From UHGV virus genome UHGV-0038498: a stretch of 64,000 nt of DNA; one strand, 5' to 3'. Position 1 is the first letter of the stretch. Each line of letters opens with the position of its first letter. Of this stretch, positions 1 through 6,767 are shown piece by piece. A model generated the notes under the pieces. It saw only the letters and a program-made list of their open reading frames with translations, ran no database searches and was not told where the DNA came from. Origin of the DNA: a virus. Made by a program: the position numbers and the translations under genes.

Positions 1-1
1 C

Positions 2-1030
2 ATCAGTAAGAATATCAAATTTCCAGCTTTTGCACAGTTAAAAGCAGATGGAGCTCGGTGTTTTGCTGAAGTCCGAGGTGATGAATTAGATGATGTTCGT
101 CTTTTATCACGAGCTGGTAATGAATATCTAGGATTAGATCTTCTTAAGGAAGAGTTAATCAAAATGACTGCTGAAGCCCGCCAGATTCATCCAGAAGGTG
201 TGTTAATTGATGGCGAATTGGTATACCACGAGCAAGTTAAAAAGGAACCAGAAGGCCTAGATTTTCTTTTTGATGCTTATCCTGAAATTAGTAAAGCTAA
301 AGAATTCGCCGAAGTAGCGGAATCTCGTACTGCTTCTAATGGAATCGCCAATAAATCCTTAAAAGGAACCATTTCCGAAAAAGAAGCTCAATGCATGAAG
401 TTTCAGGTCTGGGATTATGTCCCGTTGGTAGAAATATACGGTCTTCCGGCGTTTCGTTTAAAATATGATGTACGTTTTTCTAAACTAGAACAAATGACAT
501 CAGGATATGATAAAGTAATTTTAATTGAAAACCAGGTAGTAAATAACCTAGATGAAGCTAAGGTAATTTATAAAAAGTATATTGACCAAGGTCTTGAAGG
601 TATTATTCTCAAAAATATCGATGGATTATGGGAAAATGCTCGTTCAAAAAATCTCTATAAATTTAAAGAAGTAATTGATGTTGATTTAAAAATTGTAGGA
701 ATTTATCCTCACCGTAAAGACCCTACTAAAGCAGGTGGATTTATTCTTGAATCAGAGTGTGGAAAAATTAAAGTAAATGCTGGTTCAGGCTTAAAAGATA
801 AAGCCGGTGTAAAATCACATGAACTTGACCGTACTCGCATTATGGAAAACCAAAATTATTATATTGGAAAAATTCTAGAGTGCGAATGCAACGGTTGGCT
901 AAAATCTGATGGCCGCACTGATTACGTTAAATTATTTCTTCCGATTGCGATTCGTTTACGTGAAGATAAAACTAAAGCTAATACATTCGAGGATGTATTT
1001 GGTGATTTTCATGAGGTAACTGGTCTATGA
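2..1030 (+). CDS. 30: ATP-dependent DNA ligase (T4 gp30-like), 5'-truncated at window edge
   Basis: Frame-2 translation from nt 2 reads ISKNIKFPAFAQLKADGARCFAEV (KxDG adenylation motif) and runs into the 288-aa ORF ending at 1030; matches T4 ligase C-terminal half as I recall it. Confidence 0.9.
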   Translation: MSKNIKFPAFAQLKADGARCFAEVRGDELDDVRLLSRAGNEYLGLDLLKEELIKMTAEARQIHPEGVLIDGELVYHEQVKKEPEGLDFLFDAYPEISKAKEFAEVAESRTASNGIANKSLKGTISEKEAQCMKFQVWDYVPLVEIYGLPAFRLKYDVRFSKLEQMTSGYDKVILIENQVVNNLDEAKVIYKKYIDQGLEGIILKNIDGLWENARSKNLYKFKEVIDVDLKIVGIYPHRKDPTKAGGFILESECGKIKVNAGSGLKDKAGVKSHELDRTRIMENQNYYIGKILECECNGWLKSDGRTDYVKLFLPIAIRLREDKTKANTFEDVFGDFHEVTGL

Positions 1031-1215
1031 AAGCTTACTTAGAAACAATTGTCGTTGCTCAAAAAGAAGGTGAAGATGTTTCTACTTCTGTATCACAAAT
1101 TATGATTGAATTTATAGATGCATATGCTTATAATAAATTCACAGAAACATTTGATGCCTATGAAAAAGGTCCAAAGTTTGAAATATATCGTACTCTCTTA
1201 CCAATAGATTATTAA
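1027..1215 (+). CDS. hypothetical small protein (62 aa)
   Basis: ORF overlapping ligase stop by 4 nt (coupled); followed by GC hairpin terminator. Confidence 0.45.
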   Translation: MKAYLETIVVAQKEGEDVSTSVSQIMIEFIDAYAYNKFTETFDAYEKGPKFEIYRTLLPIDY

Positions 1216-1238
1216 AGGCCTTCGGGCCTTTAATTTTA
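1214..1238 (+). terminator. intrinsic terminator hairpin
   Basis: AAAGGCC-TTCG-GGCCTTT followed by T-rich run. Confidence 0.55.
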
Positions 1239-1244
1239 TAAATA
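1237..1244 (+). promoter_or_regulatory. T4-type late promoter TATAAATA upstream of alt
   Basis: Exact TATAAATA 21 nt upstream of alt ATG. Confidence 0.6.
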
Positions 1245-1264
1245 GAATAAACACTAGAGAGGAT

Positions 1265-3361
1265 ATGATGGAACTCATTACAGAATTATTTGACGAAGAT
1301 ACTACTCTTCCGATTACAAACTTAAATCCAAAGAAGAAAATACCGCAAATTTTTTCAGTTCATGTTGATGACGCAATTGAACAACCAGGATTTCGTTTAT
1401 GTACCTATACATCTGGAGGTGATACTAATCGCGATTTAAAGATGGGCGATAAAATGATGCATATTGTTCCTTTTACATTAACTGCTAAAGGTTCAATTGC
1501 TAAATTAAAAGGTCTCGGTCCAAGCCCAATTAATTATATCAATTCAGTTTTTACTGTTGCGATGCAGACGATGCGTCAGTATAAAATTGATGCATGTATG
1601 CTCCGTATTCTTAAGTCTAAAACTGCTGGTCAAGCTCGTCAAATTCAACTTATTGCTGATAGACTTATCCGTAGTCGCTCAGGTGGCAGATACGTCCTTC
1701 TTAAGGAACTCTGGGATTACGATAAAAAGTATGCATATATTCTTATACATCGCAAAAATGTATCATTAGAAGACATTCCAGGAGTTCCTGAAATTAGTAC
1801 CGAGCTCTTTACTAAAGTTGAATCGAAGGTCGGTGATGTTTATATCAATAAAGATACTGGAGCTCAAGTAACTAAAAATGAGGCAATTGCAGCATCTATT
1901 GCGCAAGAAAACGATAAACGTTCTGACCAAGCTGTAATCGTTAAAGTTAAAATTTCCCGTAGAGCAATTGCACAAAGTCAGTCATTGGAATCTTCTAGAT
2001 TTGAAAGTGAATTATTCCAGAAGTATGAATCTACTGCAGCTAATTTCAATAAACCTGCTACCGCTCCTTTAATTCCCGAAGCGGAAGAAATGAAACTTGG
2101 AATTAATTCACTAGCTTCTAAAACTAAGGCAGCAAAAATCATTGCCGAAGGAACTGCAGATGAACTTCACTATGATTATAAATTCTTTTCAAAAAGTGAG
2201 GTTAATGAAGTTTCTGAAAAAATTAAAGATGTAATTCTTAATGCGATTAAAAATGAACCAACTACTTCAATAAAATGTTTAGAGAAATACGCAGCAGCTA
2301 TTAATAAATTCTTTGAAGAATACAAAGATACTTGGCTTGATAAACATAATAAAACCCGTAAAGGACAGCCAGATGAAGTTTGGGAAGAAATAACTAAAAA
2401 TTCCTGGAACGCAGCAAAAACTAAATTCCTCAAACGAATGATTTATAGCTTTTCTGGAATTGGTGCAGGTCCAATGATTGATATTACTATTGCCCGTGAT
2501 GGTTCGAAATATACTCCATCACAAAAGCGCGGCATTAGAGAGTATTGTGGTTCAGGATATACTGACATCAATAATCTTCTTTTAGGACGCTACAATCCAG
2601 AACGATATGATGTAATGAGTGAAAAAGAAATTGAATCTGCTATAAATAACTTAGATTCAGCTTTTGAAAATGGTGACCGTATACCGGAAGGCATTACAGT
2701 TTATCGTGCTCAAAGTATGACTGCTCCTATATACGAAGCATTAGTTAAAAATAAAGTGTTCTATTTCAGAAATTTTGTATCTACTTCTTTAACTCCTATC
2801 ATTTTTGGACGTTTTGGAATTACACATGCTGGTATTGGTCTTTTAGAACCAGAAGCTCGTAATGAATTAACAGTTGATAAAAATGAAGAAGGAATAACTA
2901 TTAATCCAAACGAAATAAGAGCGTATAAAGAAAATCCTGAATACGTTAAAGTTCAAATAGGATGGGCAATTGATGGAGCTCATAAAGTTAATGTTGTATA
3001 TCCAGGAAGTCTCGGAATAGCAACCGAAGCTGAAGTTATTCTACCACGCGGATTGATGGTCAAAGTTAATAAAATAACTGATGCTTCTAATAATGACGGA
3101 ACAACATCTAATAATACAAAACTCATTCAAGCTGAAGTTATGACTACGGAAGAACTCACCGAATCAGTAATTTATGACGGTGACCGTCTAATGGAAACCG
3201 GCGAAGTAGTTGCAATGACAGGTGATATTGAAATAGAAGACAGAGTTGACTTTGCATCATTTGTTTCATCAAATGTTAAACAAAAAGTAGAATCATCTCT
3301 TGGAATTATTGCGTCTTGCATAGATATTACAAACATGCCTTACAAGTTCGTTCAAGGATAA
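1265..3361 (+). CDS. alt: Alt ADP-ribosyltransferase, packaged head protein (698 aa)
   Basis: N-terminus MELITELFDE (capsid-targeting/prohead-protease type leader); C-terminal ART signatures FYFRNFVSTS (STS motif) and EAEVILPRG (catalytic Glu region); late promoter TATAAATA at 1237-1244. Confidence 0.9.
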   Translation: MMELITELFDEDTTLPITNLNPKKKIPQIFSVHVDDAIEQPGFRLCTYTSGGDTNRDLKMGDKMMHIVPFTLTAKGSIAKLKGLGPSPINYINSVFTVAMQTMRQYKIDACMLRILKSKTAGQARQIQLIADRLIRSRSGGRYVLLKELWDYDKKYAYILIHRKNVSLEDIPGVPEISTELFTKVESKVGDVYINKDTGAQVTKNEAIAASIAQENDKRSDQAVIVKVKISRRAIAQSQSLESSRFESELFQKYESTAANFNKPATAPLIPEAEEMKLGINSLASKTKAAKIIAEGTADELHYDYKFFSKSEVNEVSEKIKDVILNAIKNEPTTSIKCLEKYAAAINKFFEEYKDTWLDKHNKTRKGQPDEVWEEITKNSWNAAKTKFLKRMIYSFSGIGAGPMIDITIARDGSKYTPSQKRGIREYCGSGYTDINNLLLGRYNPERYDVMSEKEIESAINNLDSAFENGDRIPEGITVYRAQSMTAPIYEALVKNKVFYFRNFVSTSLTPIIFGRFGITHAGIGLLEPEARNELTVDKNEEGITINPNEIRAYKENPEYVKVQIGWAIDGAHKVNVVYPGSLGIATEAEVILPRGLMVKVNKITDASNNDGTTSNNTKLIQAEVMTTEELTESVIYDGDRLMETGEVVAMTGDIEIEDRVDFASFVSSNVKQKVESSLGIIASCIDITNMPYKFVQG

Positions 3362-3364
3362 ATC

Positions 3365-5422
3365 ATGGAACTTATTACAGAATTATTTGACGGCGCTTCG
3401 GCGCCGGTTGTTAACTTAAATCCTAAGCATAAAATACCTCAAATTTTTGCTATTCAAGCCGGCGAAGAAAGTGTGCTTCCTGGATTTAGATTTTGTACAT
3501 ACACCTCTGGCGGTGATACAAATAAAAACGTTAAGCCAGGCGATAAAATGATGCATATCGTAATGATAGGTGTTAATGAGAAACTATCATTAGTTAAACT
3601 TAAAAACTTGGGTGGAAATCCAATTGGTGTCATTAATGCCGTTTTTGATACTGCTCTTCAAACAATGAAACAGTATAAAATTGACGCATGCTTATTCCGC
3701 GTACTAAAAAGTAAAACAAATGGCGCAGCTCGTCAAATGCAAGTTATTGCTGACCGTTTAGTACGTACTAAAGGAGCAGGTCGATATGTTCTTTTAAAGG
3801 AAATCTGGGATTATGATAAAAAGTATGCATATATTATGGTTTACCGTAAAAATGCCAATTTAGAAGACATTCCAGGTGTACCTCCTATTTCAACTGAGTT
3901 ATTCACAAAAGTTGAATCAAAGGTTGGTGATGTGTATGTAGATGTTAAAACAGGTAATGCTGTTCCTAAAGCTGTTGCTGTTGCTGCTTCTATTGCCTTA
4001 GAAAATGATAAGCGCACGGATCAAGCTGTTATTCAGAAAACTAAAATTAGTCGTCGATTAGCAGCGCAAGCTCAATATTCTACTGTCGATGCTTCACTAC
4101 AGAGTGATAGCTTCGCTGCCAAGAAATATCAAGAGTTTGAATCTAAAGTTCCGGTACATAAAGCAGAAGGACCAATGAACTCTGGCGTTATTCAGATTGG
4201 TTCAAACTTCGGCAAAGGAGCTATCGGTGGTATGAGAAGTGCTTCTCGTTTTAAATCTAACGATTATGAACTAGAAAGCTTCCGAAATCATATTGCATTG
4301 GCCCATGCACGTTTACGTGATCCATCTATCAAGCTGCAGAGCGATATAACATATCAAGGTTCTCAAGAATATTTAAAGAATAAAGAATTTTTTGATTATA
4401 AAACCGATAAAATTTTGAGCGATCTCGCTGACATTAATATTTCTAATAGCTTTGATGTTATTAAGAAAATTATCAATGATTTAGTTAAAGGTTCTAAAGC
4501 TACGCCAGACGAAAAGGTAGCTATTATTCAATTTGTCATGAATGGCATTTATAAATTGATTAATGAATCTGCTGCCCAGGCGTATGAATACGCAAGCACC
4601 GAAGTAACTCCAAAAGGACTGACTCAGGCTGAGTCTGATGTAATTGAAGATTATTGTGCAGATTCATATGTTGAAATGAACTCGTTCCTCTTGGGTAAAC
4701 CAGATTCTACCCGTGAAGAATACATGGAACGAGCTATTAAACACATCGAGACAATGGATTCTGCCTTTGCCAAAGGTTCAGTTCTTCCTCCAGGAACTAC
4801 GCTTTATCGTGGACAAGAAGTTACTTTTAAAACTTTACGCCATAATATTGAAAATAAAATGTTCTATTTCAAGAACTTCGTATCAACATCGCTTAAACCA
4901 AATATCTTCGGTGAGCATGGTAAAAACTATATGGCTCTAGATGATTCCGGCGCAGTATTTTCTGGTGAAGGAGAAGGTTCTGTTGATGCTGAAGATTTAA
5001 TGCATATGGGTAGTCATTCTGCTTATGCGAATGAAGATGCTGAAACTAGCGTAGGTATGGTAATTAAAGGGGCTGAGCGAATCAAAGTTATCGTTCCAGG
5101 TCATTTATCAGGATTTCCATCAGAAGCTGAAGTTATTCTACCGCGTGGAATTTTGTTGAAGATTAATAAAGTAAGCACGTACATGATGAAAGAAACTGCT
5201 TATAACAAGTATCTAATCGAAGGCACAATCGTTCCTCCTTCTGAACAATTAGAAGAATCGGTATATGATGGCGATCATCTAATGGAAACTGGTGAAGTTC
5301 GTCCAATGGCTGGGTTTAATCAATTCCTTGTAGAAGAATCAAAAGAAGAGGAAAACGAAGTTTCTCAAATCTTGGCTTCTTTGGTTAACATCAACGGAAT
5401 GTCTAAAAAGTTCAAGATGTAG
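3365..5422 (+). CDS. second Alt-family ADP-ribosyltransferase paralogue (685 aa)
   Basis: Same N-terminal leader MELITELFDG and conserved first ~230 aa; divergent middle; intact C-terminal FYFKNFVSTS and SEAEVILPRG motifs; start 4 nt after alt stop. Confidence 0.8.
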   Translation: MELITELFDGASAPVVNLNPKHKIPQIFAIQAGEESVLPGFRFCTYTSGGDTNKNVKPGDKMMHIVMIGVNEKLSLVKLKNLGGNPIGVINAVFDTALQTMKQYKIDACLFRVLKSKTNGAARQMQVIADRLVRTKGAGRYVLLKEIWDYDKKYAYIMVYRKNANLEDIPGVPPISTELFTKVESKVGDVYVDVKTGNAVPKAVAVAASIALENDKRTDQAVIQKTKISRRLAAQAQYSTVDASLQSDSFAAKKYQEFESKVPVHKAEGPMNSGVIQIGSNFGKGAIGGMRSASRFKSNDYELESFRNHIALAHARLRDPSIKLQSDITYQGSQEYLKNKEFFDYKTDKILSDLADINISNSFDVIKKIINDLVKGSKATPDEKVAIIQFVMNGIYKLINESAAQAYEYASTEVTPKGLTQAESDVIEDYCADSYVEMNSFLLGKPDSTREEYMERAIKHIETMDSAFAKGSVLPPGTTLYRGQEVTFKTLRHNIENKMFYFKNFVSTSLKPNIFGEHGKNYMALDDSGAVFSGEGEGSVDAEDLMHMGSHSAYANEDAETSVGMVIKGAERIKVIVPGHLSGFPSEAEVILPRGILLKINKVSTYMMKETAYNKYLIEGTIVPPSEQLEESVYDGDHLMETGEVRPMAGFNQFLVEESKEEENEVSQILASLVNINGMSKKFKM

Positions 5423-5482
5423 TTTACAAGTCCCTCGTGTTGTGTTATAGTAGTTTTACTGACATAACATGAGGAACACAAA

Positions 5483-5773
5483 ATGAAATCTTCTTTACGC
5501 TTTTTAGGTCAAGAACTTGTAGTTGAAGGCGTTATTCCTGCTGATAACGCTTTTAATGAAGCAGTTTATGATGAATTTATCAAAATTTTTGGAACAGATA
5601 AAAAGTTCGGAATTTTTCCTTCTGAAAATTTTTCAAAGCCAGAGCAGACTGAAAGCATTTTCCAAGGTGTAGTAACAGGTAAATTTGAGTCAGAAGCTCC
5701 GGTAAAAATTGAAGTTTACATTGAAGACAGTTTAGTTGCTTCAGTTGCTGCTTTTATTTCATTCCGTAAATAA
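5483..5773 (+). CDS. hypothetical protein (96 aa)
   Basis: ORF with AGGA-type RBS, followed by bidirectional hairpin terminator at 5780-5797. Confidence 0.5.
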   Translation: MKSSLRFLGQELVVEGVIPADNAFNEAVYDEFIKIFGTDKKFGIFPSENFSKPEQTESIFQGVVTGKFESEAPVKIEVYIEDSLVASVAAFISFRK

Positions 5774-5779
5774 AAATAT

Positions 5780-5797
5780 GGGGACCTTTCGGTCCCC
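5780..5797. terminator. bidirectional terminator between convergent ORF (96 aa) and gene 54
   Basis: GGGGACC-TTTC-GGTCCCC flanked by A-run upstream and T-run downstream. Confidence 0.6.
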
Positions 5798-5801
5798 ATT
5801 G

Positions 5802-6767
5802 TTATATTGCTCCTAATATCTTACTTTGCGAGTTGACAATTCCCGTCATAGTATTAATGTTGGAAATGCTTCCAGCAGTTCCCCCTAATCTACTAAGTCG
5901 TGAAAGCGAATTAGATAATCCAGTAACACCTCCACTATTTCCGAGAACGCTTTGAATGCCATTTATAGCAGCAGATTCAAGCCACTCAAGCGCAGCTTGT
6001 CTATCAACCGACCCAGCCTGCATGACTCTATACGCAAAAGTAACATCAAATGTAGTTATTTGGTTATCTCCATCATATGATAACTCAGGAGCGCTCACTG
6101 ACACTGGAATGCATCCGGTGAACATCACCGCAGTATGAGGTAATCCATTACGAGCATGAAGATTAACCTGAATATCTGCCTCGACATCTTGTGGCAAAGC
6201 ACGCAGTCCAGTTACTGGGTCTTGAACAGCGTTAACCCAGTCTTGCATCGCACGATAGTTACAAGCTTCTGAATCCATTCTAAATGAAATAACCAAAGGG
6301 TCTAATTCTCTCCCAGTTATACGAATATTAGGAGAATTATAGTTCCAGTCAGTTTCATAGGATAATCTATTCTCTGGCATTTTTACAGAATATATCATCA
6401 ATCCAGATGAGTTATATGCCATGTTAAAGAAGTCAATTAAATATGTACCAACTGTAAATGAGCCCAATAAACTTTGAACTGTACGTTGACTCATGGCACC
6501 AATAAGATATTTACTAACCCCTGATTTTCTTATCAGTTTTTGTGTGCCAGCGGTAATTAGCGTGGTAATTCCCTGATTAATATCGCCTTGAGTCAATCCT
6601 AACCAATCTGAATTTAGACCCAAGTTATTATAAGAAAAGTTGCTAATTGAACTTATCAACGAAGAGCTTTTAGTTGATGGAGTTGTCGCAAAAACGCAGC
6701 TAAACATATTATTACGTTGGAAATCTGCGTTTATTGCTTGATTATTAAATTCCTCTAAAGAATACAT
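5802..6767 (-). CDS. 54: baseplate tail-tube initiator gp54
   Basis: 321-aa ORF, position and length match T4 gp54; start MYSLEEFNNQ. Confidence 0.85.
   Translation of the reverse strand: MYSLEEFNNQAINADFQRNNMFSCVFATTPSTKSSSLISSISNFSYNNLGLNSDWLGLTQGDINQGITTLITAGTQKLIRKSGVSKYLIGAMSQRTVQSLLGSFTVGTYLIDFFNMAYNSSGLMIYSVKMPENRLSYETDWNYNSPNIRITGRELDPLVISFRMDSEACNYRAMQDWVNAVQDPVTGLRALPQDVEADIQVNLHARNGLPHTAVMFTGCIPVSVSAPELSYDGDNQITTFDVTFAYRVMQAGSVDRQAALEWLESAAINGIQSVLGNSGGVTGLSNSLSRLSRLGGTAGSISNINTMTGIVNSQSKILGAI

Follow-up and report, generated by a model that had tools for sequence, protein, structure and literature searches.

The window analysed here, a stretch of 64,000 nucleotides (nt) of the virus genome UHGV-0038498, comes from a T4-like phage, of Tequatrovirus type, and is ~98% identical to the closest records over positions 1000-5800. 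It carries two genes of the Alt family of ADP-ribosyltransferases (ARTs) in tandem, and the second of these, whose product is referred to below as the second Alt, is the subject of this analysis. As the original prediction had it, both are full-length open reading frames, 1265..3361 (698 residues) and 3365..5422 (685 residues). Only three bases (ATC) lie between the TAA stop codon of the first (3359-3361) and the ATG of the second (3365), and the MELITELFD start and the motifs FYF[RK]NFVSTS and [TS]EAEVILPRG are indeed found in both proteins. The second gene is intact, old and under selection, its catalytic residues and processing motifs are conserved, and it has been lost by T4. The two genes and the parts of the second one are as follows.

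1265/1268..3361, plus strand: alt orthologue (first ART reading frame), 697 residues from ATG 1268, the alt start used in related records, or 698 residues from the first ATG at 1265
3354..3358, plus strand: Shine-Dalgarno sequence AAGGA of the second ART gene, 6 nt 5' of its ATG, within the end of the first gene
3365..5422, plus strand: intact second Alt-family ART gene, 685 residues, 75.9 kDa
3365..3382, plus strand: MELITE, the predicted N-terminal propeptide, with the gp21 motif ITE-6 at its end; E6 is invariant in the family
3383..4078, plus strand: Alt-specific N-terminal alpha/beta domain, residues 7-238, 66% identical to the corresponding domain of the neighbouring alt protein
4079..4636, plus strand: divergent all-helical central domain, residues 239-424, present at at least 90% identity in 402 phage records
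4637..5257, plus strand: ART catalytic domain, residues 425-631, with R482 at 4808-4810, S507-T508-S509 at 4883-4891 and E587-A-E589 at 5123-5131
5249-5257, plus strand: predicted gp21 site L629-E630-E631 before a serine, no more than one residue from the aligned position of LTE-619 in T4 Alt; E631 is invariant
5258..5419, plus strand: predicted C-terminal propeptide, residues 632-685, the counterpart of the 63 residues cut from T4 Alt after LTE-619

The identity of the two genes follows from their position and from their sequence relationships. The gene order in the T4 reference record is 30, alt.1, alt, alt.-1, alt.-2, alt.-3, 54, which identifies the first reading frame of the window as the alt orthologue. 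The identity of its product to T4 Alt (NP_049811) is 70% overall, ~99% over the N-terminal 240 residues and only 13-32% over residues ~250-440, such that the alt gene of the window, judged by these identities, is a different allele from T4 alt. The possibility that the second reading frame is the T4 alt orthologue was considered and rejected, as its product is 42% identical to T4 Alt and as it sits at the position of alt.-1 and alt.-2. Both proteins pass the cutoff (23.4 bits) of the Pfam family PF03496 (ADPrib_exo_Tox), the alt orthologue with 129 bits (E = 1.7e-37) and the second Alt with 72.9 bits (E = 2.9e-20, residues 416-620). Both also match phrog_802, 'Alt-like RNA polymerase ADP-ribosyltransferase', with E-values of 1.5e-272 and 1.7e-255, respectively, residues 1-685 of the second Alt being aligned with positions 2-674 of the 674 profile positions. 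No NCBIfam family is matched by either protein. The family PF26846 also occurs in precomputed annotations of these ART proteins.

The allelic variation of alt was seen in other comparisons too. Positions 2075-2503 of the window, within the alt orthologue, have no blastn match to T4. The alt middle region of the window, of the 'RB32/T2/T6-type', is found at at least 90% identity in 320 records and shares ~31-33% identity with the T4-type middle. Mixed genotypes occur as well: phage W143 has a T4-type alt together with an intact second gene, and phage SG1 has the alt allele of the window together with the T4-type deletion described below.

The predicted fold of the second Alt is that of an ART. 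A search of Protein Data Bank (PDB) chains with the full protein gives nothing at E <= 0.01, and the ART domain alone gives weak matches to VIP2 and Vis (E 0.03-0.3), which served only to place the motifs. In the resulting alignment, the catalytic arginine is found in the aromatic-arginine pair Y481-R482 of strand 1, aligned with the arginine of 'TVYRW' of VIP2. The Ser-Thr-Ser motif S507-T508-S509 is the end of FYFKNFVSTS, and E587-A-E589 of the ARTT loop is aligned with 'SEKEILL' of VIP2. No catalytic residue of the set R482, S507-T508-S509 and E587-x-E589 is substituted, a point on which the original prediction could have failed: when 38 family members, with identities of 42-97%, are aligned, R482, S507, S509, E587 and E589 do not vary. 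On this alignment the second Alt appears catalytically competent. In this enzyme clade, Glu-x-Glu predicts an arginine acceptor, whereas Gln-x-Glu occurs in the asparagine-specific C3 enzymes. The presence of Glu-x-Glu rather than Gln-x-Glu therefore predicts arginine as the acceptor residue of the second Alt. Its E587-A-E589 corresponds to E574-M-E576 of the RefSeq sequence of T4 Alt, of which the mutant with the second glutamate changed into alanine, published as E577A, is inactive (PMC11404850); the published numbering is one off that of the RefSeq sequence.

The solved ARTs of the R-S-E class, which are the Vis toxin (PDB entry: 4xzj), VIP2 (PDB entry: 1qs1), iota, CDTa, C2-I and Certhrax, together with their asparagine-specific relatives, the C3 exoenzymes, are 14-26% identical in sequence to the second Alt. 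They are secreted bacterial toxins with eukaryotic or small-molecule targets, whereas the second Alt is a phage protein with a predicted location in the head, having an additional N-terminal portion of ~420 residues.

The conservation of the catalytic site is accompanied by constraint on the entire gene. In seven of the seven orthologues compared, the open frame is exactly 2,058 nt long, and the ratio of nonsynonymous to synonymous substitution rates (dN/dS) of the second gene is 0.03-0.08 in 21 pairwise comparisons with dS values of up to 0.24, a range comparable to that of alt (0.015-0.076). Constraint is seen in each of its regions, N-terminal, middle, ART and tail, to a degree similar to that in alt. 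The second gene is under strong purifying selection.

The second Alt and the neighbouring alt protein are 42% identical overall, and the identity is unevenly distributed, being 53-75% over residues 1-238 and 30-47% over most of the ART domain. The original prediction described the central ~300 residues as unrelated. The middle regions do differ, as there is no detectable similarity to Alt when the isolated central regions are compared by BLASTP (E = 12) and as residues 239-424 are only 15-20% identical to the middle of the neighbouring alt protein in one alignment, and 11-12% identical to the middle of the alt proteins of the window and of T4 in another. The extent of this difference is smaller, being ~185 residues, to which is added an insert of ~45-70 residues in the segment between STS and ExE, which is divergent between the two proteins. 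In related toxins, this STS-ExE segment holds the substrate-contacting loops. No solved structure matches the central domain convincingly. An exhaustive HMMER search with this domain against 1.84 billion cluster representatives gave no matches, which is a weak negative since its own family is also absent from that set, and a word-indexed homologue search returned a single fragment of 112 residues while missing known full-length relatives and is therefore uninformative. Beyond the Alt paralogues of this group, neither search located the domain, a negative that is weak for these reasons.

Compared with T4 Alt, the second Alt has the same phrog_802 membership, the same layout (leader, N-terminal domain, middle, ART domain and C-terminal tail), an N-terminal domain with 66% identity, the same R/STS/ExE set, both gp21 motifs and the same locus, bounded by genes 30 and 54. 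It differs in its overall identity of 42%, in its ART domain (35-36% identical, with another STS-ExE insert) and in the ~185 residues of its middle, unrelated in sequence. T4 Alt is a packaged and injected arginine ADP-ribosyltransferase that uses nicotinamide adenine dinucleotide (NAD+). The second Alt is a separate, older paralogue and not its orthologue.

The gene is widespread. The central region has tblastn matches in 446 phage records, 402 of which, including T6 and RB27, are at at least 90% identity, and the 2,058-nt gene is present in T2 as well. Coverage of the complete two-gene region is 80% or more in 342 records, and the T4-type deletion junction is found in ~91 of 500 records. Among the states of this locus in Tequatrovirus, the tandem pair is the most frequent, and since the intact gene is common, also in T2 and T6, T4 is the exception. 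The gene is also already known and widely annotated, and is not a new discovery: both genes are named 'Alt-like RNA polymerase ADP-ribosyltransferase' or similar in many records, 'Alt-like ... (x2)' occurs in hundreds, and a comparison of T4-like genomes from 2006 lists alt.-1/alt.-2 and full-length alt duplicates as alt paralogues (PMC1524935). The modA and modB genes are found in 502 records, including records with the intact second gene; the window itself stops short of the modA/modB region. Phages with the intact second gene that also have modA and modB therefore encode four ARTs, in agreement with the proposal that the second Alt is a fourth ART beside Alt, ModA and ModB.

The state of this gene in T4 is explained by two lesions, which become visible when the DNA of T4 and of the window are aligned, and which involve the following features of the window.

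3524..3528, plus strand: run of five A (A5), codon 54; T4 has A4 there
3704..3712, plus strand: direct repeat CTAAAAAGT (9 bp), left copy, at codon 114, marking the left boundary of the T4 deletion
5403..5411, plus strand: right copy of the 9-bp repeat CTAAAAAGT, codon 680; right end of the T4 deletion, its frame being shifted by one with respect to the left copy

The loss of one A from the A5 run is a -1 frameshift in T4, which splits alt.-1 from alt.-2, and window positions 3713-5411 are missing in T4, being removed by an out-of-frame deletion of 1,699 bp between the CTAAAAAGT repeats. The T4 proteins Alt.-1 (NP_049810, 61 residues) and Alt.-2 (NP_049809, 67 residues) match residues 1-56 and 62-116 of the second Alt with identities of 95% and 98%, respectively, and their genes occupy the genomic position of the second gene. 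By position and identity, alt.-1 and alt.-2 are its true orthologues, differing in that they are broken in T4 and whole in the window. Given the frameshift and the deletion, they are the remnant of a full-length gene that is still whole in the phage of the window. The notes of the T4 record describe them as hypothetical proteins and as a duplication of the first part of alt; on these alignments they are better read as a decayed full-length paralogue than as a partial duplication of alt. The framing of the window as T4 is not correct, as this phage is not T4, of which the genome keeps just the decayed remnant, alt.-1 and alt.-2. The original prediction had also considered that the second copy could be the orthologue of an annotated T4 gene with known function; it is found to be the orthologue of annotated gene fragments, and no known function is attached to these.

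The age of the duplication can be estimated from the phage UGJNEcP4 of the genus Dhakavirus, which has three tandem Alt-like ART genes (positions 1-5910), each starting 3 nt past the preceding stop codon; the first copy is cut by the edge of the locus, and the other two encode 681 and 707 residues. The second Alt pairs with Dhakavirus copy 3 (identities of 46% in the middle, 56% in the ART domain and 64% in the tail), and Alt pairs with copy 1 (55-62% in the ART domain, 52-55% in the tail and a weaker 25-32% in the middle). This orthologue-like pairing across genera places the duplication before the split of Tequatrovirus and Dhakavirus. The third Dhakavirus gene (CAH1616805 of UGJNEcP4; 'Alt' of JS10, P0012) is the closest relative of the second gene outside Tequatrovirus, sharing the otherwise orphan middle, being the last of its array and adjoining alt.-3. 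It differs in its length of 707 residues, in belonging to a three-gene array and in its N-terminal domain, which is 89% like those of the copies of its own genome and 46% like that of the second Alt.

The N-terminal domains show another pattern, being more alike within a genome than between genera: the pair of the window is 66% identical and Dhakavirus copies 2 and 3 are 89% identical, whereas the proteins of the window or of T4 are 42-50% identical to the Dhakavirus copies. The middle regions of Dhakavirus copies 2 and 3 are unrelated (18% identity). Recent gene conversion of the N-terminal domains was rejected as an explanation, since stretches of 60 nt vary between 57 and 83% in nucleotide identity and no identical run exceeds 21 nt; it is possible that old gene conversion, or co-adaptation to the same capsid, is behind their similarity. 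The pattern fits a delivery module that would be adapted to the head of each phage, combined with effector parts that would be older and more divergent. In the phage collection as a whole, 1,202 records contain the Alt N-terminal domain, which occurs 1,820 times in total; the rows sampled have between one and three copies.

The motifs at which T4 Alt is processed are also retained. Mass spectrometry of T4 Alt has located two cuts by the gp21 prohead protease, at ITE-6 and at LTE-619, the latter of which removes 63 C-terminal residues (PMC5694885), and ~40 copies per head are ejected together with the DNA (PMC9026906). In the second Alt, the leader MELITE|LFD that was proposed to serve packaging is kept with its ITE-6 gp21 motif, and the LEE-631 motif is kept too. 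Cleavage at both would generate a mature protein of residues 7-631 with a predicted mass of 69.1 kDa. Residues 642-670 of the predicted C-terminal propeptide have a model confidence (predicted local distance difference test) below 50.

Expression is predicted to start from the following element.

1237..1244, plus strand: T4-type late promoter box TATAAATA, a consensus match 23 nt 5' of the alt ATG

This box, the only one that is well placed, is the probable promoter for both ART genes, as suggested by its match and place. Late boxes of the TATAAATA type are enriched in the window, 25 being found and 9.4 expected, and there is no late-promoter box between the two ART genes. Since such a box is absent there and since the gap is only 3 nt, late co-transcription is the simplest reading. 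The sole other TATAAATA box on the same strand within positions 1-6000 is at 2641-2648, inside alt and ~720 nt 5' of the second gene, and may have arisen by chance or act as a late promoter within the gene. A sigma-70 promoter scan was not used for the ART genes, as it found 17 sites compared with 19.4 in shuffled sequence.

Taken together, these properties suggest that the second Alt is probably a working, packaged and injected arginine-specific mono-ADP-ribosyltransferase with targets of its own. In the pathway that we infer, it would be a late product: the late promoter at 1237 would give a transcript shared with alt, and translation would use a ribosome-binding site of its own. It would enter the prohead core by means of the leader and the N-terminal domain that it shares with Alt. 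Trimming by the gp21 prohead protease at ITE-6 and LEE-631 would then generate the mature protein of ~69 kDa, which would be ejected with the DNA into the next host cell and would modify host proteins there in an NAD+-dependent reaction with arginine as acceptor. The set of targets would be fixed by its own helical middle domain and its divergent ART loops, and would probably differ at least partly from that of Alt.

Several observations weigh against this reading. T4 and ~90 other records live without an intact gene, and there are shortened alleles (P0006, P0008 and P0010, of 624, 528 or 415 residues) as well as a split gene in phage UTI-E4, all at 96-98% identity. The absence of the gene from these records and its truncation in some alleles imply that it is dispensable at least on some hosts, and the shortened and split alleles in a minority of relatives imply that the gene has been damaged independently more than once, and not just in the T4 lineage. 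The promoter assignment is a consensus match only. The literature searches, several being directed at this point, found no biochemical, genetic or virion-proteomic study of the second Alt, and only the comparative-genomics remark of 2006. As the ART core and the ExE motif are common to both proteins, the targets may also overlap with those of Alt.

This last point leads to the alternative that the second Alt is an active injected ART which acts on essentially the targets of Alt (RNA polymerase alpha and others) and which is kept as a back-up, for dosage or for robustness if one copy is neutralised. Such redundancy would agree with an architecture, catalytic motifs, an arginine-type ExE signature and processing motifs that are all the same as in Alt, and with the loss of the gene in T4 without obvious harm. 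However, the paralogues have been distinct since before the Tequatrovirus-Dhakavirus split, and a middle domain that is unlike that of Alt and yet tightly conserved is unexpected for a merely redundant copy, which makes this alternative unlikely. That the gene is a decaying or inactive duplicate, a pseudoenzyme heading to the T4 state, is very improbable, as the 2,058-nt frame is open in all seven phages, with the dN/dS values given above and with all catalytic residues kept, and as ~400 records keep the gene at at least 90% identity, even if the deleted form exists in T4 and ~90 related records and a few alleles are truncated.

It could also be considered that the second Alt is packaged, but is chiefly a structural component of the head core, or acts late in the producer cell rather than on injection. 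Alt has been described as a head-core protein besides being an enzyme (PMC11404850), the N-terminal domain is the part best conserved between the paralogues and expression is predicted to be late; a purely structural role, however, would not need the strong constraint on the catalytic residues and on the whole ART domain, and T4 heads assemble without the second Alt. We regard this possibility as quite improbable. The probable reading continues to be that of an injected enzyme with its own targets.

A more far-reaching version of that reading is that the alt locus is a modular array of injected effectors, in which a capsid-tuned head-delivery module (the leader and the N-terminal domain) would be fused to interchangeable 'warheads' (the middle and the ART domain), with one to three of these per genome in the records sampled, and in which a host protein not affected by Alt would be the target of the second Alt. 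This version agrees with the observations made here, but is tentative and rather doubtful. If it is true, then the second target could belong, for example, to a defence system or to the translation machinery, and the loss of the second Alt by T4 would help to account for the differing sensitivity to host defences that is known for T4 and T2/T6.

What is known about ADP-ribosylation of host proteins by phages comes nearly entirely from T4, which is a reduced case: in most of its close relatives, T2 and T6 among them, a further Alt-type enzyme with a conserved middle region of its own is at least encoded, if not also injected. The alt gene of the window is also a different allele. The target lists of T4 Alt may consequently not carry over to these phages. 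The usual reading of alt.-1 and alt.-2 of T4 is to be corrected as well, as these are the wreck of a full-length gene and not a partial duplication.

The two ART genes are surrounded by the following features.

164-1030, plus strand: gene 30, DNA ligase; the 5' part of the gene falls before the start of the window
1027-1215, plus strand: alt.1, 62 residues, a full-length match to Pfam PF24647 'Phage blade protein' (1e-27)
5483-5773, plus strand: alt.-3 orthologue, 96 residues, Pfam DUF5498
5778..5799, no strand assigned: GC-rich hairpin that separates alt.-3 from the convergent gene 54 and resembles a terminator on either strand

The first 4 nt of the alt.1 gene are also the last 4 nt of the ligase gene. 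The hairpin at 5778..5799 is probably the end of the transcription unit, and the baseplate genes 54, 48 and 29 are convergent and lie downstream of it. The alt.-3 orthologue has its own promoter of the T4 early style, GTTTACA-N17-TATAGT at 5421-5451, which begins inside the stop codon of the second gene. The T4 deletion ends 9 nt before the first G of this promoter, so that the alt.-3 promoter and gene are kept in T4, where the mutations that allow escape from the CmdTAC defence system extend the C terminus of Alt.-3 (PMC11618068).

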